Assembly (NCBI RefSeq): GCF_045037415.1
Contig: NZ_CP173438.1
DNA from: Escherichia coli
GTDB taxonomy: Bacteria; Pseudomonadota; Gammaproteobacteria; Enterobacterales; Enterobacteriaceae
DNA: 64,000 nt
Reading direction: 5' to 3' (one strand)
The position numbers and the translations under genes are program-made. Each line of letters opens with the position of its first letter. Position 1 is the stretch's first letter. The notes under the pieces were generated by a model that made no database searches, was not told the origin of the DNA, and saw only the letters and a program-made list of their open reading frames with translations. Below, one piece after another: positions 5,688-50,646 of the stretch.

Positions 5688-8579
<2,892 letters not shown>

Positions 8580-9103: not shown

Positions 9104-9129
9104 TTCTCCCGATGTCCTCAATTGAAATG

Positions 9130-9158
9130 AACCCGATGATCTGCGCATCGGGTTTTTT
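9130..9158 (+). terminator. intrinsic terminator after the motAB-cheAW operon
   Basis: Hairpin aacccgatgatctgcgcatcgggtt followed by a T6 run. Confidence 0.5.
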
Positions 9159-9247
9159 ATTTCAATTTCGCGGCGGGTGGCATCAGCAATAAAGTTTCCC
9201 CCCTCCTTGCCGATAACGAGATCAACTTGTTTTCAGGAAGGTGCCTT

Positions 9248-13526: not shown

Positions 13527-14171
13527 ATGATGCAACCATCAATCAAACCTGCTGACGAGCATTCAGCTGGCGATATCATTGCGCGCATCGGCAGCCTGAC
13601 GCGTATGCTGCGCGACAGTTTGCGGGAACTGGGGCTGGATCAGGCCATTGCCGAAGCAGCGGAAGCCATCCCCGATGCGCGCGATCGTTTGTACTATGTT
13701 GTGCAGATGACCGCCCAGGCTGCGGAGCGGGCGCTGAACAGTGTTGAGGCGTCACAACCGCATCAGGATCAAATGGAGAAATCAGCAAAAGCGTTAACCC
13801 AACGTTGGGATGACTGGTTTGCCGATCCGATTGACCTTGCCGACGCCCGTGAACTGGTGATCGATACACGGCAATTTCTGGCAGATGTCCCCGCGCATAC
13901 CAGCTTTACTAACGCGCAACTGCTGGAAATCATGATGGCGCAGGATTTTCAGGATCTCACCGGGCAGGTCATTAAGCGGATGATGGATGTCATTCAGGAG
14001 ATCGAACGTCAGTTGCTGATGGTGTTGTTGGAAAACATCCCGGAACAGGAGTCGCGTCCAAAACGTGAAAACCAGAGTTTGCTTAATGGACCTCAGGTCG
14101 ATACCAGCAAAGCCGGTGTGGTAGCCAGTCAGGGTCAGGTGGACGATTTGTTGGATAGTCTTGGATTTTGA
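13527..14171 (+). CDS. cheZ: CheY-P phosphatase CheZ
   Basis: ORF 13497..14171; start placed at [12 protein letters not shown]... to give the 214-aa product. Confidence 0.9.
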
Positions 14172-20543: not shown

Positions 20544-21299
<756 letters not shown>

Positions 21300-21344
21300 T
21301 TTTTACCGTTGCATCATGTCGCCCAATATGATGCTTGCTCGTAC

Positions 21345-21378
21345 CAGGCCCCTGCAATTTCAACAGGGGCCTTTTTTT
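21345..21378 (+). terminator. intrinsic terminator after cutC
   Basis: Hairpin caggcccctgcaatttcaacaggggcc followed by a T7 run. Confidence 0.45.
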
Positions 21379-28228: not shown

Positions 28229-29542
28229 TTAACTTACTGATTTTAATAAGCCTCTGGTGTCACTTTGGTGACTATGGGGCATCATTGGGACATAATCTGT
28301 CAGCTTCTGATTCAGCATTGCGATCTGTTCTGCATTGCTGTCAGTCATCCATGCTCCGTATACATTGAATACCATCTGGGCACTTGCATGGCCCATCTGG
28401 CTGGCAATGAAGCTTGGGTTTGCTCCGGCAGATAATGACCAGCACGCATAAGTGTGTCGTGACTGGTATGCCTTTCGATGCCTGATCCCTGCACGCTTAA
28501 TGGCTGTTTCCCATGAGTCACCTACAGAATCGACTTTGTAGACAAAACCTACCTGTTCGCTTTTTCTAACCACTTGAGGGTTAAACACGAAAGTACATTC
28601 ATGGTTCACTGAACGTCCATATTCACGTAGTTGCACCTTGATGTTGTACTGCTTACCCAGTCTTGTCATTTCAGCCTGATTTTTCAGGACACTGATAGCG
28701 GGCTGGATAAGGTGCACAACCCTGTTTGTGCTTGCTTCAGTTTTCGGTAGAGTGAACTCACCAAGTTTCGTATAATTGCGCCTGATGGTAATTGTTCCTG
28801 CCTTCAGATCGATATCTTCCCAGGCCAGGGAAACCAGTTCACCGTGACGCATTCCTGTGTACACAGCCAATGACCACAGGTTTTTCGTCTGCTGATGTCG
28901 GCAAGCATCTATCAGGCGAATAAATTCGTCACGAGTTAGCGGATCTGGCTCTGCCCTGGCTCTTTTAAGAGGCTTAATTCCCTGGAAGGGATTTGCTTCT
29001 AAGTAACCGTGATCTGCAGCAAACTGAAACATTCCAGCGATTGTCGTCATGTAATAATTTACAGTAACGACGCTCCGTCCTTTTGCTGCTGCTTTGTTTT
29101 TCGTTGAATTCTGATACCCGGTAAGCAAATCTTTCCTGATATACAGCAATTCCTCTTTGGTTACCGATGACACCAGTCTACTGCCTCCAATTTTCGGAAC
29201 CATCGTTCTTGCAACGGATTCATAGCGATTGAATGCATTTGCAGAGATTTCCATTCGTTTCAGATCCAGCCACTTTTCTTCAAGTTCCTTCACCGTAATT
29301 TCTTTTTTACTTACCCCAAAAGCCTGAAGGTTGGGGGAGTCAGGGAACTGTGCAGCATAATCAAAGCTTCCTGTGCGGATGGCAAAACATACTGATGTCC
29401 GCAGTTCCCCGGCGATCTTCCTGTTCTTGGCAGTGTCAGGGACACCAAGATTTTCCCTGACACGTTTACCTTTAAAATTAAACCAGATGCGTAATGTGCC
29501 GCCGTGGTTTTCGACGCCTGTTGGATATTTGACTTTATCCAT
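28229..29542 (-). CDS. int: phage integrase (tyrosine recombinase)
   Basis: 437-aa ORF; C-terminal catalytic region with R...HxxR...Y arrangement (HTYACWS...GHASAQMVFNVYGAWM) typical of lambdoid integrases; abuts the attL junction. Confidence 0.9.
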   Translation of the reverse strand: MDKVKYPTGVENHGGTLRIWFNFKGKRVRENLGVPDTAKNRKIAGELRTSVCFAIRTGSFDYAAQFPDSPNLQAFGVSKKEITVKELEEKWLDLKRMEISANAFNRYESVARTMVPKIGGSRLVSSVTKEELLYIRKDLLTGYQNSTKNKAAAKGRSVVTVNYYMTTIAGMFQFAADHGYLEANPFQGIKPLKRARAEPDPLTRDEFIRLIDACRHQQTKNLWSLAVYTGMRHGELVSLAWEDIDLKAGTITIRRNYTKLGEFTLPKTEASTNRVVHLIQPAISVLKNQAEMTRLGKQYNIKVQLREYGRSVNHECTFVFNPQVVRKSEQVGFVYKVDSVGDSWETAIKRAGIRHRKAYQSRHTYACWSLSAGANPSFIASQMGHASAQMVFNVYGAWMTDSNAEQIAMLNQKLTDYVPMMPHSHQSDTRGLLKSVS

Positions 29543-37024: not shown

Positions 37025-37325
37025 ATGATCATTTCAAGACCAAATATTGATTCTGCAATTTCGGGACGTTACACTGTCTCCGCACCTTATAAAGCGGGTG
37101 CCGGGATTGGCGTCCTGAAATTGTCAACGGCGATGTATGACGCGCCAGCGTCTTTTTTATCGTCCGCATTTGCTCACATCCAGATTATGGTGGGCTGGGC
37201 GGGGGCACCGAAAGGTGCGCCGGTTCTCCGTTGACGCCGGTTACGCCAACCCCGTCCAGTTCACCACCAGTGAAATTGGCGTTTCCGGTGGTGGAAGTTT
37301 TTCACTGTCAACGGAGGCTGCCATC
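37025..37325 (+). repeat. about 300-bp leader repeat, copy 1 (terminator-like hairpin plus GAAA-tetraloop stem)
   Basis: Direct repeat of 37685-37984; the first about 60 nt are near-identical (atattgattctgcaatt.cgggacgttacactg...accttataaagcgggtgccggg); contains gacgcgccagcgtc followed by T6, and gcaccGAAAggtgc. Confidence 0.5.
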
Positions 37326-37688
37326 ATGGCTACTGTCCTAACTTCCCCATTCCTAAAAATCGAAGTCGTCAACGGCAAGGCCGTTATTTTCTCCCTGCAT
37401 GTTGCCTGCCATTTCAAGCGCATGCACCAGAACATCGTTGACAAAATCGAGTATCTGAACTGCTCACGCGAGTTTTTTACCCGCAATTTCATACCGGGTA
37501 CTTATCACATCTACGGTGACTCCCTGCGTGGTTATTACATCACCCTTGATGGTCTGATGATGCTTCAGCTTGGGTTAAGTCTGCGCACAATGCGGTACTA
37601 CGAGAGCTGTATTGAAGCATTCCATGAGGCTGAAACCGTCCAGGGTCACTCCGCGTTCCGTCGTAATCAACGGGAGGTGCACCTATGA
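37326..37688 (+). CDS. Rha-family regulatory protein (short form)
   Basis: Start placed at MATVLTSPFLKIEVVNGKAVIFSLHVACHFKRMHQNIVDKIEYL... behind a GGAGG Shine-Dalgarno; the Rha N-terminal pattern parallels the next gene. Confidence 0.55.
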   Translation: MATVLTSPFLKIEVVNGKAVIFSLHVACHFKRMHQNIVDKIEYLNCSREFFTRNFIPGTYHIYGDSLRGYYITLDGLMMLQLGLSLRTMRYYESCIEAFHEAETVQGHSAFRRNQREVHL

Positions 37689-37984
37689 TCCGCCACCAGC
37701 ATATTGATTCTGCAATTCCGGGACGTTACACTGCTCAGGCACCTTATAAAGCGGGTGCCGGGCGTGGAAACCCGAAATTCAATATAGAGCACAACCGCGC
37801 TCATGCGGTTTTTTCGTGTCATGAGCATCGTTACACCCAAATTATGGTGGGGCGTGCAGGGCCAACTTCGGTTGGGCCGGGTTCTATGTTGACCGGTATT
37901 TCCACCCCTGTACGTCTCACCACCTATATGGTCGTGGAAAGCCTTGGTGGTGAGTTCATTGAATTCAACATAGGGGCTGTCACC
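37685..37984 (+). repeat. about 300-bp leader repeat, copy 2 (terminator-like hairpin plus UUCG-tetraloop stem)
   Basis: Direct repeat of 37025-37325; contains ccgcgctcatgcgg followed by T6, and ccaacTTCGgttgg; in frame with the downstream Rha ORF, so it could alternatively be coding. Confidence 0.45.
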
Positions 37985-43219: not shown

Positions 43220-44260
43220 GTGAACATTCAGGCAGTAGACATTTTTTGTGGTGCGGGGGGCTTAACTTTTGGGCTAAAAAAAGCCGGGATTGAGGTTTCT
43301 CATGGTATTGATATTGATGAATCCTGCCGTTTTGCTATTGAGAGCAATAATCCTTTAACGCAGTTCATTAATCAGTCAGTTACAGAACTGCAATCCTGCG
43401 ATGTGTCTGCTATGTTCAAGGAAGGAAATATTAGATTGCTTGCTGGATGTGCTCCTTGCCAACCGTTTTCCAAGTATCGTAATCCAAATAGCCGTAAAGA
43501 CGATACAAAGTGGCGTTTGTTATATGAGTTTCAAAGGCTTGTAAGTGATGTCATGCCAGAGCTTGTGACGATGGAGAATGTTCCTCAACTTAGAAACCAT
43601 AAGGTTTTTGAAGGGTTTGTTAGTGCATTAAAGACTCTTGGATATCATTTGTGGTACGACGTTGTAAGATGTTCTGAGTATGGCTTACCTCAAAATAGAC
43701 GTAGATTAATTCTAATTGGTTCCCAATTGGGGCCGATCAGCCTTGATCAAAAAAAAGTTAGCCGTAAAGTTACTGTTAAGGATGCTATTGGTAGGTTGCC
43801 AAAAGTAGGGGCAGGTGAGAAGCTGGAAAGCGATCCCTTGCATCGTTCGCCTAAATTGATGGATATCAATCTTAAACGAATCATGCATTCTTTACCTGGT
43901 GGTACGTGGGATGACTGGCCTGAAGAAATTAGAGCAGACTGTCATAAAAAGAATTCAGGTGCTACCTATAAAAGCGTTTATGGACGGATGGTTTGGGACG
44001 ATACTAGCCCTACGATAACTACCCAGTGTTATGGATATGGAAATGGACGATTTGGCCATCCTGAGCAAAATCGCGCCATAACTTTGCGTGAAGCTGCGAT
44101 TTTGCAATCCTTTCCAATGGATTATAAATTCCTTGACAAGGAGACGCCTTTTTCATTCCAAAAATTGGGGACAATGATTGGAAATGCTGTTCCCCCTATA
44201 ATTGGTCAGATAATAGGGGAAACATTTATCAGACATGTTGAGGGGATAAATACCCGTTAG
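43220..44260 (+). CDS. DNA (cytosine-5)-methyltransferase, Dcm family
   Basis: 346-aa ORF, GTG start; C5-MTase motifs I FCGAGG, IV PCQPFS, VI ENV, VIII QNRRR and X GNAV are all visible. Confidence 0.85.
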   Translation: MNIQAVDIFCGAGGLTFGLKKAGIEVSHGIDIDESCRFAIESNNPLTQFINQSVTELQSCDVSAMFKEGNIRLLAGCAPCQPFSKYRNPNSRKDDTKWRLLYEFQRLVSDVMPELVTMENVPQLRNHKVFEGFVSALKTLGYHLWYDVVRCSEYGLPQNRRRLILIGSQLGPISLDQKKVSRKVTVKDAIGRLPKVGAGEKLESDPLHRSPKLMDINLKRIMHSLPGGTWDDWPEEIRADCHKKNSGATYKSVYGRMVWDDTSPTITTQCYGYGNGRFGHPEQNRAITLREAAILQSFPMDYKFLDKETPFSFQKLGTMIGNAVPPIIGQIIGETFIRHVEGINTR

Positions 44261-44918
44261 AGGTAATATAATTTTCTGTTGAGTTGATTAATAAACGCAA
44301 ATATAGATCAATTCTTTCTGACCTCGATTTGACTTCTTCTAAAGGGTCTATTTGACCTTTTTTAGAAAAGCTGGTACTTCCATGTGCCAGCTCATTTCTG
44401 ATATCTTTAAGTAAATCTAAGTCAACACCATTTCTACACTCTGGTGAGTTTGCAACAGTTATTCCGTAAGCTTGTGTTATTTTGTGCAATACAGACTTGC
44501 AAACATTACCATTGAATTCTTTACGTATGTTTAATGAGGCTGAAATGATCCTTTTAGATATATCGGAACCAATTTTTTGATAAAGAGATTTTCCCGATTC
44601 ATTATCTGAAATGATACGGTGCAAGATATTTACTTGGAATTTCTCCCTGAGTGATGCGTAATTTACTTCATTATCTTGCAAATGGTCATAAATTGACTCA
44701 ATGCATCCTCTGGCAGTGTTTTCAACCTGATTGTACAGCATCATGTGCACGGATGATTTTAAAATGTTAACCCTAAGGGTATTTGATTCTATTTCATCTT
44801 TATGCGTTTGCTGATCTAACTGCTGAGTCTGAGCCTCTAAAGATGACGCAAGAGAAAGCAATTCCATAATATCTCTTGCTCTTTCTTCGTATTCATCTCT
44901 TAAATCAATCAAACTCAT
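44229..44918 (-). CDS. HEPN-domain protein (predicted RNase/nuclease), partner of the DUF262 protein
   Basis: 229-aa ORF; C-terminal Rx4H HEPN motif (DIRNELAHG); ATG 2 nt after the stop of the upstream DUF262 gene with an AGGA Shine-Dalgarno inside that gene's 3' end. Confidence 0.65.
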   Translation of the reverse strand: MSLIDLRDEYEERARDIMELLSLASSLEAQTQQLDQQTHKDEIESNTLRVNILKSSVHMMLYNQVENTARGCIESIYDHLQDNEVNYASLREKFQVNILHRIISDNESGKSLYQKIGSDISKRIISASLNIRKEFNGNVCKSVLHKITQAYGITVANSPECRNGVDLDLLKDIRNELAHGSTSFSKKGQIDPLEEVKSRSERIDLYLRLLINSTENYITSNGYLSPQHV

Positions 44919-44920
44919 AG

Positions 44921-46078
44921 TTACATTCCTAATAATTTATCTTTGACATAAAATATTCTGTTTTTGAGTTGGCTGGTGTTGTTGGCACTATCAGCAGTAA
45001 CTATGGTTTCAAATTCCTCCCCAAACAGCCAGTCTCCTACAGGAATAACCGGAGCCTGTAGATGTGGATTGGCTTTTAAGGCAAGAGCAGTTCCCACTGC
45101 TATGGCTTCGTATCTAGCACGGGGGGTGGTTTTGCTTGTTGGTGTCTTTTTAAACCCCATAGGGAAATGAGCATCTACAAAAGCAAGCATGCTTTCAAAA
45201 TCATGTTTAAATTTGTCTACATCTTGTTGTGTGACCCTTTCGGCCTGAACATTAAGATAATTGTCAATAAAAGGAGCGACATAACCCTTATAATTTTCTA
45301 AATCATTTAAGTATGCAAAAAATCTCAAAACTAACTCACGATGATCGCCATTCGAACGTTTCCGGTCTGATAATGGAGCTAGACTAGCGAAAAGTGGATT
45401 TGTTGAGCAAGGAGTCACAACATCCCTATAGAAAATTGAAGTGGCCGCATCTGAACCATGTCTAACCTCCATCGCTTCCAGTCTCTTAACACCTGAATTT
45501 ATTCTTTCGAATAAATCTCTTCTATGTTGCTCCTCAACATCACCTTTCAATTCAATAAATCTTAGTGATGCCCTTAAAAATCGCCTCTGGCGGCTAGCCA
45601 AAAGATCTGAAAATTTGAAGCCCTCTAAACTTTTGAGTTCTTTTAAGTCTTTCAATTCAAACTGATTGTTCCAAAAGTAGTAAATTGAGCGAATCCTTTG
45701 TGAACCGTCAATAATTTCTACACGACCATCCAACTCAGGATCTTCATTAAATACGTCGGAGATGTAGAGGTACGGGATTGGAAAATCTAATAATATACTT
45801 TCGATGAATCGAGAGGCTGTTTTGATATCCCATTTGTAATCGCGTTGATAATCAGGAATAAAAAGTTCGTTTTTGTCAGTTTCAAGATTATTGCCATACT
45901 TTTGTACAATTAATTCAACGGTCCATTCACGTACGTTGTATCCAATATTTCTCTGAGCAAGCCTAATCTCGTTGTCGGCAGAAGTGACCAAGGCTGCAAT
46001 TTCAGCTTTTTTTCTATTTTTCGCGTTTTCATCTTGAATCTGAGCAAGCTCTTCTTTGAGTTCTTTGAGTGTGGTCAT
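44921..46078 (-). CDS. DUF262 (ParB/Srx-like, GmrS-N-type) domain protein without an HNH/DUF1524 domain
   Basis: 385-aa ORF; DUF262 hallmarks FIPDYQRDYKW and IIDGSQR near the N-terminus; long helical C-terminal region with no nuclease motif. Confidence 0.75.
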   Translation of the reverse strand: MTTLKELKEELAQIQDENAKNRKKAEIAALVTSADNEIRLAQRNIGYNVREWTVELIVQKYGNNLETDKNELFIPDYQRDYKWDIKTASRFIESILLDFPIPYLYISDVFNEDPELDGRVEIIDGSQRIRSIYYFWNNQFELKDLKELKSLEGFKFSDLLASRQRRFLRASLRFIELKGDVEEQHRRDLFERINSGVKRLEAMEVRHGSDAATSIFYRDVVTPCSTNPLFASLAPLSDRKRSNGDHRELVLRFFAYLNDLENYKGYVAPFIDNYLNVQAERVTQQDVDKFKHDFESMLAFVDAHFPMGFKKTPTSKTTPRARYEAIAVGTALALKANPHLQAPVIPVGDWLFGEEFETIVTADSANNTSQLKNRIFYVKDKLLGM

Positions 46079-46679: not shown

Positions 46680-47420
46680 ATGGCTAATACTGTAAAAATA
46701 TCCAGTTGTGAGTTAATCAACGCCGACTGCCTGGAATTTATCCGGTCGTTACCCGAAAATTCTGTTGACCTGATAGTCACGGACCCGCCGTACTTTAAAG
46801 TGAAGCCTGAGGGCTGGGATAACCAGTGGAAGGGCGACGATGATTACCTGAAGTGGCTGGACCAGTGTCTGGCGCAGTTCTGGCGGGTGCTGAAACCTGC
46901 CGGAAGTCTTTACCTGTTCTGTGGTCATCGCCTGGCATCTGATATCGAAATCATGATGCGTGAACGCTTCAGTGTGCTGAACCATATTATCTGGGCGAAG
47001 CCGTCCGGACGCTGGAACGGATGCAACAAGGAAAGCCTGCGGGCGTATTTCCCCGCCACAGAGCGCATTCTGTTCGCGGAACATTATCAGGGGCCGTATC
47101 GTCCGAAAGATGCCGGGTATACGGCGAAGGGCAGTACGGCTGTGTCGGACAGGGCTTACATATTGCCAAAAAACTGCTTCCGTATATCCCTAATAACGCG
47201 GGGATCCTGCTGGTACCATGCTGTCGTGGTGGTTCGGCATTCACCCAGGGCACGGAGGGGACATTCAGCGAGTCCACGGGGGCCAGTCAGGATTCGGCTC
47301 GCTGGGGAGTGGGTAAGCCGTTATATCAGGATCTGCTTTTCCGCACGAAGGCAGCATTGCAGAAAAACCCGAAAAACGTTTTGCTGGCGATATGCTGGAT
47401 GCAGGGGGAATTCGATATGA
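46680..47420 (+). pseudogene. N6-adenine/N4-cytosine-type DNA methyltransferase, N-terminal fragment only (frame lost after about 140 codons)
   Basis: Motif IV TDPPYF and ...LNHIIWAKP... are present, but no motif I follows; the frame degenerates into low-complexity sequence while the overlapping frame becomes NanS-like. Confidence 0.45.
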
Positions 47421-48562
47421 CGAATGCCAGTTACGCCCAGCAGCCAGCAGCATTTCTTGCAATGGTACAGCAGTTCCGTGCTGACCTTGCCGGGCTGGCG
47501 GCGCAGTGTCACGGTGGAAGTCCGGCATCAGTCCCCTGGATTTGTGGCGACACGACATACGTGTGGAAACAAGAACACGGTACGCAATATGAAGTGGTAT
47601 ATGGTGCATATAAAGGTAAAGAATCCCAGCAGATTTATTTTGTTCCCTTTATGACCGATGGTAGCGGAGTTAATACACCGACAAACAACCCGTCAGAAGA
47701 TCCTGATATTGCCGGGTCTGGTTATTACGGTTCGGCATCCCGAACGAACAAAAACTGGGTATCATCAAATCGCCCGACGCATTTCAGCTCATGGGCGCGT
47801 CGTGGCATTATTCCCGATCGTATGGCAACTGCTATTCTGAACGTAGCCGGTCGCACCTTAGCCTTCATTAGTGGTAAGGCACCGGAAATCAAACCCTCGC
47901 CCGGCGGCGACACTCCATCGGGGCCGTCTGATGGTGACACATCCGTTCGTACAGTCTCCCTGCTGCCGACAGCCGGAGAGGCTGCTGCGCAGGGCTGGAC
48001 CATCACCGGCGGCAGTGTTGCGCTGGAAGATGGTGTGTTTAAGGTTACCAAGCAGAGCAATAAAACTTGGTCCCTGATGCATCCGGTGGATGACGCAGTC
48101 TCCCTGCTGACACGGGGTGGCAGACTGAGCTGTAAGTTTCGACTGTCAGGCGCACTGACCAACAACCAGTTCGGTCTGGGAATTTATCTGTGTACCGATG
48201 TAGCGTTACCTGACGTCGTGGCGATGACCGGGACTGGTAACCCGTTCCTGATGTCGTTCTTCACCCAGACCACAGACGGCAAACTGAATCTGATGCATCA
48301 CAGGAAAGCAGGAAACACAAAGTTGGGCGAGTTCGGGAATTACAGTAACGACTGGCAGACGCTGGAGCTGGTGTTCACCGCCGGCAGTGCCACGGTTACT
48401 CCGAAACTGAATGGAGTGGCTGGCCCGGCATTCCAGGTCATAAAAGACAGTCTGACACTGGGGCTGAATGCGCTGACGCTGACGGATATTACCAAAAATG
48501 CAGCGTATGGCGTTGAGATAGAAAGTCTGGTGCTGGAGATAAATGCACCAGCATCATCATAA
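47021..48562 (+). CDS. prophage NanS-like sialate O-acetylesterase (NanS-p type), apparently 5'-truncated
   Basis: Frame matches recalled YjhS/NanS from ...QYGCVGQGLHIAKKLLPYIPNNAGILLVPCCRGGSAFTQGTEGTFSE... onward, plus a C-terminal extension; the N-terminal GQSN-containing region was not seen. Confidence 0.55.
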   Translation: MQQGKPAGVFPRHRAHSVRGTLSGAVSSERCRVYGEGQYGCVGQGLHIAKKLLPYIPNNAGILLVPCCRGGSAFTQGTEGTFSESTGASQDSARWGVGKPLYQDLLFRTKAALQKNPKNVLLAICWMQGEFDMTNASYAQQPAAFLAMVQQFRADLAGLAAQCHGGSPASVPWICGDTTYVWKQEHGTQYEVVYGAYKGKESQQIYFVPFMTDGSGVNTPTNNPSEDPDIAGSGYYGSASRTNKNWVSSNRPTHFSSWARRGIIPDRMATAILNVAGRTLAFISGKAPEIKPSPGGDTPSGPSDGDTSVRTVSLLPTAGEAAAQGWTITGGSVALEDGVFKVTKQSNKTWSLMHPVDDAVSLLTRGGRLSCKFRLSGALTNNQFGLGIYLCTDVALPDVVAMTGTGNPFLMSFFTQTTDGKLNLMHHRKAGNTKLGEFGNYSNDWQTLELVFTAGSATVTPKLNGVAGPAFQVIKDSLTLGLNALTLTDITKNAAYGVEIESLVLEINAPASS

Positions 48563-48712
48563 AAAGTGAGCCAGTCAAATGGAAGGTATCGTTAAACTCA
48601 CCGGTAGTGTCAGTGGGTCGTCTGAGATGCCTGCATGAGTTATCAGAGCCATCAGTACTTAACTGGTGGCTTTTTTTATTGTTGTCAGCTTCCGGATAAC
48701 GGGAGACGGGGT

Positions 48713-48928
48713 ATGTACCAGATGGAAAAAATCACAACAGGTGTGTCATACACCACGTCAGCGGTGGGAACGGGCTACTGGTTCCTGCAGTTGCTGGACA
48801 GGGTTTCCCCGTCTCAGTGGGCGGCAATAGGCGTGCTGGGGAGTCTGCTGTTTGGGCTGCTGACATATCTGACTAACCTGTATTTCAAAATCAGAGAGGA
48901 CCGTCGTAAGGCTGCACGGGGAGAGTAA
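48713..48928 (+). CDS. S: holin, phage 21 S-like pinholin
   Basis: ORF 48635..48928; [71 protein letters not shown] resembles S21; tandem Met starts (MYQM) and a GGGAGACGGGG Shine-Dalgarno. Confidence 0.8.
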
Positions 48929-48932
48929 TTCA

Positions 48933-49283
48933 ATGACTCAAAACTATGAACTGATTGTGAAAGGGATCCGCAATTTTGAGAATAAAGTTACGGTAACTTT
49001 AGCGTTACGGGACAAAAAACGCTTTGACGGTGAAATTTTTGACCTGGACATCTCGCTGGACCGTGTTGAAGGTGCCGCGCTGGAGTTTTATGAGGCAGCA
49101 GCCAGAAGGAGCATCAGACAGGTCTTCCTGGATGTTGCTGCCGGGTTATGTGAAGGGGATGAGCAGTCGCCGGAAAAGCGCCCCGTAATTTTAGAGGCGC
49201 AGAATGTATGGATAACCTACAAAGGAAAGCTACCGGGAAGAATTACTGGTTCTCTGAAGACTCCTCCGGAATCACAACCTTAA
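48933..49283 (+). CDS. hypothetical protein inserted between holin and endolysin
   Basis: 116-aa ORF with no recognisable motifs. Confidence 0.4.
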   Translation: MTQNYELIVKGIRNFENKVTVTLALRDKKRFDGEIFDLDISLDRVEGAALEFYEAAARRSIRQVFLDVAAGLCEGDEQSPEKRPVILEAQNVWITYKGKLPGRITGSLKTPPESQP

Positions 49284-49346
49284 GTCACTGACCGGAACAG
49301 ATAAACCTGTCCGTGGGCAGAAACCGATAAATCCTGATAAATATCC

Positions 49347-49880
49347 ATGAACACCAAAATCAAATACGGCCTGTCGGCTGCCGTTCTGGCGCTGATTGCC
49401 GCTGGTGCGCCTGCGCCTGACATTCTCGACCAGTTTCTGGATGAAAAGGAAGGTAACCACACCACGGCATACCGTGATGGCGCGGGTATCTGGACCATCT
49501 GCCGCGGTGCCATCCTGGTGGATGGCAAACCTGTCGTTCCGGGCATGAAGTTGTCGAAGGAAAAATGCGACCGGGTTAACGCCATTGAGCGTGATAAGGC
49601 GCTGGCATGGGTGGAGAAAAACATCAAAGTGCCATTGACCGAACCCCAGAAAGCGGGGATCGCGTCATTCTGTCCGTACAACATTGGTCCCGGTAAGTGT
49701 TTCCCGTCGACGTTTTACAGACGAATTAATGCTGGCGATCGCAGGGGAGCATGTGAGGCGATTCGCTGGTGGATTAAGGACGGTGGCAGAGACTGCCGTA
49801 TTCGTTCAAATAACTGCTATGGACAGGTCTCACGGCGTGACCAGGAGAGCGCGCTGGCGTGCTGGGGAATTGACAAATAA
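49347..49880 (+). CDS. R: SAR endolysin (lysozyme, GH24-like) R
   Basis: 177-aa ORF; N-terminal weakly hydrophobic Gly/Ala-rich signal-arrest-release segment (YGLSAAVLALIAAGAPAP) followed by a lysozyme-like domain. Confidence 0.8.
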   Translation: MNTKIKYGLSAAVLALIAAGAPAPDILDQFLDEKEGNHTTAYRDGAGIWTICRGAILVDGKPVVPGMKLSKEKCDRVNAIERDKALAWVEKNIKVPLTEPQKAGIASFCPYNIGPGKCFPSTFYRRINAGDRRGACEAIRWWIKDGGRDCRIRSNNCYGQVSRRDQESALACWGIDK

Positions 49881-50039
49881 GCAGAATATTTTGTTGAAAA
49901 ATGACGTTGGCTAATACGGACGGATAACACGAAATCCTGAGAACTGGCAAAACCTAAGTGAATAAAAGTAAAAACCCCGTTTGTTGGCTGCAAGCGGGGT
50001 TTTGTGTTTCCTGACTCTGGAAAAGTCAAAGGAGAAAGT

Positions 50040-50177
50040 GTGTTTGATTTTAGCAAACTGATTCGGGAGATTCGAGTGATGGCTGAAAAATTATCCACCT
50101 GGAAGTTCATTCTTATCTGGCTGGTGTTTGTGATTATGGCCTCCGGTTATTTCATCGGTCAGATACGCTGGTGGTGA
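50040..50177 (+). CDS. possible small membrane protein between R and Rz
   Basis: GTG start after an AAAGGAGAAAG Shine-Dalgarno; product contains the hydrophobic stretch KFILIWLVFVIMASGYFIG; below the ORF-track size cutoff. Confidence 0.25.
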   Translation: MFDFSKLIREIRVMAEKLSTWKFILIWLVFVIMASGYFIGQIRWW

Positions 50178-50178
50178 A

Positions 50179-50646
50179 ATGAACCGCGTACTGTGCGTGG
50201 TCATCATTGCCCTGCTGGTGGCCTGTGGTGCGCTTAGTCTGGGGCTGAATCATTACCGTGATAACGCCATAACCTACAAAGAGCAGCGCGATAAAAAAGT
50301 CAGTGAGCTGGAGCTGGCAAATGCAACCATTACTGATATGCAGCAGCGCCAGCGTGATGTTGCTGCACTTGATGCCAGATACTCGAGGGAATTAGCCGAT
50401 GCGAGAGCTGAAAATGAAACTCTTCGCGCTGACGTTGCCGCTGGTCACCGCAGCCTGCGGATCAACGCCACCTGTCCAGGTCCCGTGCGTGAAGCCACCG
50501 GCACCGCCCGCGTGGATAATGCAACCGGCCCCCAACTGGCAGACACCGTTACACGGGATTATTTCACCCTCAGAGAGCGGCTGATGACGATGCAGAAGCA
50601 ACTGGAAGGGGCACAGGACTATATCCGCACTCAGTGCCTGAAATAA
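50179..50646 (+). CDS. Rz: i-spanin Rz
   Basis: 155-aa ORF MNRVLCVVIIALLVACGALSLGLNHYRDNAITYK... closely resembles lambda Rz. Confidence 0.82.
   Translation: MNRVLCVVIIALLVACGALSLGLNHYRDNAITYKEQRDKKVSELELANATITDMQQRQRDVAALDARYSRELADARAENETLRADVAAGHRSLRINATCPGPVREATGTARVDNATGPQLADTVTRDYFTLRERLMTMQKQLEGAQDYIRTQCLK
50414..50584 (+). CDS. Rz1: o-spanin Rz1 (lipoprotein) embedded in the +1 frame of Rz
   Basis: MKLFALTLPLVTAACGS...CVKPPAPPAWIMQPAPNWQTPLHGIISPSE closely resembles lambda Rz1, including the lipobox cysteine and proline-rich region. Confidence 0.72.
   Translation: MKLFALTLPLVTAACGSTPPVQVPCVKPPAPPAWIMQPAPNWQTPLHGIISPSESG

Follow-up and report, generated by a model that had tools for sequence, protein, structure and literature searches.

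A ydfR-family (DUF1327) gene between the holin and endolysin genes of an Escherichia coli lambdoid prophage: likely accessory cargo, with a possible link to RNase E

Introduction

Why does a lambdoid prophage of Escherichia coli carry a gene between its pinholin gene, S, and its gene for a SAR-like endolysin, R? Lysis cassettes of the phage 21 type had been described as running S-R-Rz/Rz1, and the complete genome of phage 21 bears this out: there the S stop overlaps the R start and no gene, hence no ydfR, lies between them. The window analysed here is a stretch of 64,000 nucleotides from contig NZ_CP173438.1 (assembly GCF_045037415.1). In it, unlike in phage 21, 351 nt of ydfR and a 63-nt spacer part S from R. 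Since S and R overlap in phage 21, the ydfR gene is an insertion relative to that phage. A first-pass annotation of the window had listed the ORF as an unrecognised gene that could be a lysis regulator or a moron exploiting late expression.

Several questions should be addressed at such a locus. Is the ORF a genuine gene, distinct from the endolysin? Does it belong to a known family? Is the product part of the lysis machinery, or is it cargo? On what might it act?

A genuine gene, separate from the endolysin

The ORF is present where it had been placed, from an ATG at 48933 to a TAA at 49281-49283 (116 codons, + strand, according to the ORF list), and encodes a ydfR-family (DUF1327) protein of 13.1 kDa and pI 5.6. 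The spacer between the holin stop (TAA, 48926-48928) and the ATG is 4 nt (ttca) when counted from the sequence, rather than the 5 bp first given. A Shine-Dalgarno-like GGGGAGAG can be read at 48918-48925 (+), within the 3' end of S, and the initiation region, 48890-48960, is no more structured than shuffled controls (z +1.17).

Copies of the gene were compared from the window, K-12 Qin, Tritos, Evi, mEp460, Stx2_EH2201 and Stx1_499. Over core codons 1-72, pairwise dN/dS of the window gene against the K-12, Evi, mEp460 and Stx-phage copies is 0.23-0.43; over all pairs with measurable dS the range is 0.21-0.44, one close Stx pair excepted. The core evolves under purifying selection. The window protein also has 320 homologous protein clusters. 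Given the Shine-Dalgarno sequence, the open initiation region, the dN/dS values and these clusters, we consider this a genuine gene and not a chance ORF.

Could it nevertheless be non-functional, as a frameshifted N-terminal fragment of the endolysin or the remains of a gene in decay? The two genes do share a frame (both starts, 48933 and 49347, are multiples of three), the structure of the C-terminal tail is poorly predicted and its dN/dS is 0.61, and other pseudogenes lie directly upstream in the same prophage. However, four in-frame stops lie between ydfR and R, three of them further stops within the spacer (49284-49346, +), and among the matches listed no YdfR homologue carries a lysozyme domain or appears as part of an endolysin, which rules out a split N-terminus. 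R has a complete SAR-like N-terminus of its own, the core is constrained as described, and stand-alone copies of ydfR occur in sequenced phages such as mEp460 and Evi. The non-functional reading is largely refuted and we regard it as very improbable. A few holin-DUF1327 fusions do occur among the listed homologues, mostly as single-sequence clusters; we infer that these are mis-calls across the 4-nt spacer. The identity of the ORF and its separateness from the endolysin are near certain.

A named and common family

The label 'unrecognised' does not apply. At the DNA level the gene is an exact (100%) match to that for WP_000193280.1, a 'YdfR family protein' of E. coli Ecol_AZ146 (NZ_CP018991.1), and the product scores 145.1 bits with PF07041 (DUF1327), for which the gathering cutoff is 25 (E 7.5e-43), in an alignment that takes in positions 1-92 of the 93 in the profile. 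Pfam, RefSeq and the annotation of K-12 already contain this family, under its name and at its place between holin and endolysin. Judged on sequence, the 'extra' gene can be classed as a named and extremely common variant.

In K-12 the Qin prophage carries essQ-ydfR-rrrQ, the same holin-ydfR-lysozyme order as the window with the same 4-nt spacer; the RefSeq record of XL1-Blue names the Qin holin essD. K-12 YdfR (P76160) belongs to the same PF07041 family and is 82% identical to the window protein over residues 1-72, with a tail past about residue 72 (SEKVESYLQHQYSFKIENPANKHERPHHKYL) that is unrelated to the window tail. The junction with the lysozyme gene differs also. In K-12 ydfR overlaps rrrQ, whereas in the window the 63-nt spacer follows ydfR. 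The next K-12 gene, rzpQ, at the spanin position of the order essQ-ydfR-rrrQ-rzpQ, is annotated as a DUF2514 domain-containing protein. The S-ydfR-R order is further seen in mEp460, Tritos, Evi and the Stx1a, Stx2a and Stx2c phages, and the S-ydfR spacer is 4 nt in every E. coli copy examined.

Of 5426 complete E. coli genomes, 4313 (about 80%) contain DNA resembling ydfR, at 8427 places and often in several copies per genome. The S-ydfR junction, counted with a 151-nt probe across it for which full coverage was required, is present in at least 2145 of the 5426 (about 40%). A tblastn search of YdfR against 50,697 phage records gave 101 matching records, all of E. coli lambdoid phages. The family is narrow in that a search of the full database with its profile gave 89 clusters at 50% identity; distant members that could be named come from Pantoea, Serratia, Sodalis and Yersinia.

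Database labels offer little on function. The leading PHROG matches are phrog_406 (E 5e-68) and phrog_2091, both of unknown function, and the same label attaches to all five PHROG matches, none being in the lysis category. No NCBIfam family matched YdfR, no PADLOC profile for anti-phage defence did so at E ≤ 1, and a PDB profile search gave nothing below E 0.3. In the literature, a search for 'DUF1327' returned annotation mention only, and one for phage RNase E inhibitors in prophages returned nothing on YdfR or DUF1327.

The lysis cassette and its surroundings

The neighbouring genes make up a cassette with a likeness to that of phage 21, comprising a dual-start holin of the S21 type, a SAR-like lysozyme and an embedded spanin pair. 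The class II holin (71 residues; 48713-48928, +) matches PF04971 (E 9e-33) as well as phrog_9876 and phrog_20, both holin families, and its counterpart in NZ_CP018991.1 is annotated 'class II holin family protein'. It starts MYQMEK, with Met1 and Met4 as the dual start of a pinholin and antiholin. The endolysin R (177 residues; 49347-49880, +) is a lysozyme by PF00959 (E 3e-24) and phrog_7 (endolysin), in which an E-x8-D-x5-T motif can be read. Residues 8-24 (GLSAAVLALIAAGAPAP) are 59% Gly, Ala or Ser and weakly hydrophobic (maximum KD17 1.77), that is, SAR-like. Rz, the i-spanin (50179-50646, +; PF03245, E 6e-48), has the o-spanin Rz1 embedded in it as a 61-residue ORF (50399-50584, +) with a lipobox-like TAAC.

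The cassette differs from phage 21 also between R and Rz. This gap (49881-50177) amounts to a second insertion, and holds a terminator-like hairpin with a 14-pair stem and a T-rich tail (49971-50003, +), which matches no Rfam family, followed by a second extra small ORF of 45 codons (50040-50177, +). The hairpin lies inside the 159 nt that separate R from this ORF. The 45-residue product is a single-pass membrane protein by hydropathy (maximum KD17 2.51), matches phrog_6632 of unknown function and corresponds to the hypothetical protein WP_000459345.1. The ORF stops 1 nt before Rz, and would encode 57 residues if read from a GTG at 50004. In Stx phages a 72-residue ORF takes its place.

The region from 28932 to 64000 is 99.95% identical to a lambdoid prophage of NZ_CP018991.1. 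By this match the Q antiterminator lies about 5.8 kb upstream of ydfR and the terminase about 2.5 kb downstream, which places ydfR in the late operon. The gene is oriented as are S, R and Rz, and a simple consensus scan of the + strand found no sigma-70-like promoter before it and no terminator after it.

Other features of the window can be recorded here. The match to the NZ_CP018991.1 prophage begins at 28932, inside its integrase gene, and two chromosomal sRNAs, C0465 at 9123-9200 (-) and MicL at 21071-21378 (+), lie ahead of that point; on these grounds the window seems to open with E. coli chromosomal sequence. Rfam identifies two tandem pairs of isrK and C4-antisense RNA at 37082-37927 (+), with isrK copies at 37082-37158 and 37739-37815 and C4 copies at 37183-37271 and 37840-37927. 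They lie amid genes for Rha/ash family regulators, directly downstream of a LexA-family repressor gene. Between Q, which a cytosine methyltransferase gene follows, and the lysis genes, genes for a HEPN-like nuclease and a DUF262 protein occupy about 44228-46077 (-), by coordinates transferred from NZ_CP018991.1. This pair resembles a defence-type insertion into the late operon. Further on, at 46680-48562, a DNA methyltransferase ORF is cut short and continues into an ORF of the DUF6645 type whose N-terminus is missing. In the identical prophage RefSeq treats both as pseudogenes, and the arrangement looks like a deletion joint directly upstream of the lysis cassette. Within the late operon, the holin start is preceded at a distance of 40 nt by a terminator-like hairpin (48645-48673, +; 12 pairs and a T run), which Q-modified polymerase presumably reads through.

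A conserved core and an exchangeable tail

YdfR is predicted to be soluble, with a maximum Kyte-Doolittle value over 19 residues of 0.69 and no transmembrane segment. It has two parts. The DUF1327 core, residues 1-75 (48933-49157, +), aligns with stand-alone homologues of 72-76 residues. Phage mEp460 has a core that is 99% identical to it. With a deeper alignment AlphaFold2 models residues 5-76 as three antiparallel strands and one long helix (pLDDT 72-86); a fold search found no convincing or informative match. The C-terminal tail, residues 76-116 (EKRPVILEAQNVWITYKGKLPGRITGSLKTPPESQP; 49158-49280, +), has pLDDT values below 50.

The tail is the variable part. Many distant members of the family end where the core ends, being stand-alone proteins of 72-76 residues that align with residues 1-72. 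The K-12, mEp460 and Stx1_499 proteins carry unrelated tails, other copies are extended to 176-183 residues, and an EKRP...SLKTPP tail segment is found also behind a different N-terminus. In phage Evi, homology to the window covers S and the first 53 codons of ydfR (85%), breaks at 49093 and resumes at 49313, 34 nt before R, the middle part having been replaced. The R-proximal 34 nt of the ydfR-R spacer are thus common to both.

Within the core, the loop between β2 and β3 (residues 26-39) and part of the helix fall into discrete allelic classes. The exceptional Stx pair, Stx2_EH2201 (L003, 1790-2005) and Stx1_499 (L017, 1801-2016), differs by 14 non-synonymous and two synonymous changes, a dN/dS of about 2.1, with the caveat that only 72 codons and small numbers of changes are involved.

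Cargo or lysis regulator?

The base composition sets ydfR apart, with a GC content of 47% and GC3 of 47% against 53-56% and 58-64%, respectively, in S, R and Rz. The gene is also absent from related functional phages. In these respects, and in sitting at a gene junction of the late operon, it resembles the morons of HK97 and HK022, extra DNA with a GC content below that of its neighbours (Juhala et al. 2000; PMC3594210). It differs from them in that no promoter or terminator was detected, and in its late-operon orientation and close coupling to the operon. With neither promoter nor terminator to itself, it is no moron in the classical sense. The suggestion of a moron using late expression therefore stands in part: low GC, absence from related phages and varied late-operon junctions agree with it, the want of its own promoter and terminator does not.

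The distant homologues are informative. Core-only DUF1327 genes occur at the junction of tail genes M and L in three independent loci (L004, L007 and L008), immediately ahead of L in Sodalis, between the genes for the tail chaperone and the tape measure in Serratia (L021), and between tail genes I and J (L023). A tandem two-domain DUF1327 protein of 176 residues is encoded between Q and a different holin (L011). In eight of nine core-only loci, counting phage Evi (L014), in which the gene lies between S and R, a convergent small ORF follows the DUF1327 gene. These convergent cassettes are morons of the HK022 (srb) type. The partner proteins belong to several unrelated families, and one family may appear at different genome positions; partners at the M/L junction share 61-65% identity with that of Evi. 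A pair of DUF1327 gene and partner of the kind seen in Evi is present in 62 of 5426 E. coli genomes. Together these observations describe DUF1327 genes as mobile accessory cargo at late-operon junctions, not as dedicated lysis machinery.

What, then, of a lysis regulator? On that account YdfR would be a cytoplasmic protein, produced in constant proportion to the pinholin, that tunes the timing of triggering by binding either the charged C-terminal tail of the holin or the SAR endolysin. The position between S and R suits such a role, as do the S stop-ydfR ATG distance of always 4 nt, the single homology block formed by S and the 5' part of ydfR, and the occurrence of that junction in at least 2145 genomes. 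The Keio deletion of ydfR appears, moreover, in a raw, unvalidated list of envelope-leakiness scores (PMC3879167 supplement), a score that may reflect a polar effect on rrrQ. However, YdfR has no transmembrane or periplasmic segment, and its five PHROG families are all of unknown function with none in the lysis category. Phage 21 lacks the gene. Among records of Stx2a-converting phages, two match YdfR in the tblastn search as opposed to 124 that match the cassette DNA. The distant homologues sit amid tail genes, away from any holin, and overproduction of the K-12 protein causes no growth defect (PMC13232886). We judge a regulatory role in lysis to be improbable, and the proposal fares worse than that of a moron, which fits better. 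With core-only homologues at tail-gene junctions and the low GC of ydfR, accessory cargo rather than a lysis regulator is the likely description of the gene.

A leader shared by moron cassettes

Inspection of the convergent partner ORFs revealed an element of about 70 nt upstream of them, consisting of TCAGCCCG, a variable hairpin and GAGGGATGGCTGATTA(C/A)CTCTGG, with a Shine-Dalgarno sequence and ATG about 10 nt further on. Copies were catalogued in L014 (2341-2445, -), in L004, L005, L006, L007, L008, L011, L021 and L023, and in L024-L103. The exact 19-mer of the leader is found in 103 viral contigs. HK022 has, between its tail genes I and J, a copy (13978-14048, -, of NC_002166.1) that precedes the 'srb' (gp23) moron.

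In 77 of 81 leader instances examined, the motif is followed by an ORF of 52-97 residues that begins 20-38 nt (in most cases about 31 nt) downstream of the first position of the motif. Together with the nine partner ORFs of DUF1327 loci (70-101 residues), the encoded proteins form 16 clusters (BLASTP E < 1e-5). Among 66 unique leader sequences the hairpin displays compensatory changes at adjacent pairs (A-U 32 versus C-G 29; G-C 36 versus A-U 28), and the CAGCC/GGCUG pairing that flanks it is nearly invariant. No Rfam family matches the leader. It may represent a 5'-leader RNA, or a regulatory module, of moron cassettes that has so far gone undescribed.

Is the leader a partner of YdfR? A DUF1327 gene lies within 3 kb of the leader in one of the 81 instances, in viral contigs, and a search of the window for a copy found none. 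We conclude that the leader is a general 5' module of moron cassettes and not a partner of YdfR. The idea that DUF1327 proteins are specific adaptors between this RNA and RNase E was rejected on the same two observations and the variety of the encoded products, at least 16 unrelated proteins. Also rejected was the ydfR-R spacer as a remnant of a leader cassette; the 34 nt shared with Evi are simply the 5' flank of R.

A possible link to RNase E

The one functional lead found for YdfR is a study of the K-12 protein (RNA Biol 2026; PMC13232886). In two-hybrid assays ydfR codons 1-72 gave interaction with RNase G, full-length RNase E and Rne1-597, and a full-length YdfR fusion gave a signal with Rne1-597 only. 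Rne1-598 co-eluted with Strep-YdfR. A DNase-resistant nucleic acid co-purified with YdfR, though the authors allow that a contaminant protein may have retained RNA. Overexpression of ydfR altered few transcripts and did not slow growth, and RNA-seq under standard growth gave nearly no ydfR reads (all PMC13232886). The window protein is 82% identical to the interacting K-12 fragment.

On this basis we put forward, as a tentative reading whose chance falls just short of even, that a ydfR-family accessory gene has been inserted as cargo into a cassette of the phage 21 type and that the core of its product binds RNase E or RNA. The gene would share the Q-dependent late transcript with the lysis genes. 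YdfR would be dispensable for lysis itself, since related phages do without it, and neither pinholin nor SAR endolysin would be its target. By homology with K-12, the core is expected to associate with RNA and to bind host RNase E in its catalytic N-terminal half. In late infection it might in this way influence how RNA decays or is processed, for instance the stability of late or host transcripts.

The mechanism is carried over from a homologue, and we give it somewhat less than an even chance. The link to RNase E comes from one paper, on that homologue, and the fixed 4-nt junction with S could signify functional coupling to the holin and not mere linkage. That YdfR, made alongside the lysis proteins, docks on the catalytic half of RNase E, possibly with RNA, and re-tunes decay at the lytic end would go a step further, and we hold this to be rather unlikely. 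Examples of such re-tuning would be stabilisation of the long late transcript or control over how the lysis mRNA is processed.

Two proteins that bind RNase E in its N-terminal half are RapZ of the host and Srd of phage T4. YdfR is much smaller than either and has no sequence relationship to them. There is a likeness to RapZ in that RNA co-purifies with K-12 YdfR (PMC13232886), and this concerns the mode of action only.

An accessory role apart from RNase E must also be weighed: defence, anti-defence, a superinfection-related function or some benefit to the lysogen, with the two-hybrid and pull-down signals being incidental. The traits of cargo, namely low GC, absence from phage 21 and a mosaic tail, are compatible with such a role, and eight of the nine independent core-only loci adjoin a convergent HK022-type moron cassette. 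The dN/dS of 2.1 between the close Stx alleles, small numbers notwithstanding, possibly hints at an arms race, and overexpression of ydfR barely alters the transcriptome (PMC13232886). However, neither PADLOC nor NCBIfam has a profile that YdfR matches, and the fold search was uninformative. No promoter from which the lysogen could express ydfR by itself turned up in the consensus scan, K-12 ydfR is almost without reads in RNA-seq of standard growth, and the interaction with RNase E was found by two independent methods (PMC13232886). We view such a role as a real possibility, clearly below an even chance. The reading that we tentatively prefer remains that of inserted cargo with a core that binds RNase E or RNA.

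Implications

The comparative data present the core of YdfR as a mobile module of 72 residues that is untied to lysis genes, and the tail alone as the part that varies. Should the RNase E lead prove right, the main RNA-decay enzyme of the host is manipulated by a gene that is very common in prophages. Were YdfR also to re-tune RNA decay at the end of the lytic cycle, it would be a temperate-phage counterpart of T4 Srd, T7 gp0.7 and phiKZ Dip, carried in most E. coli genomes.
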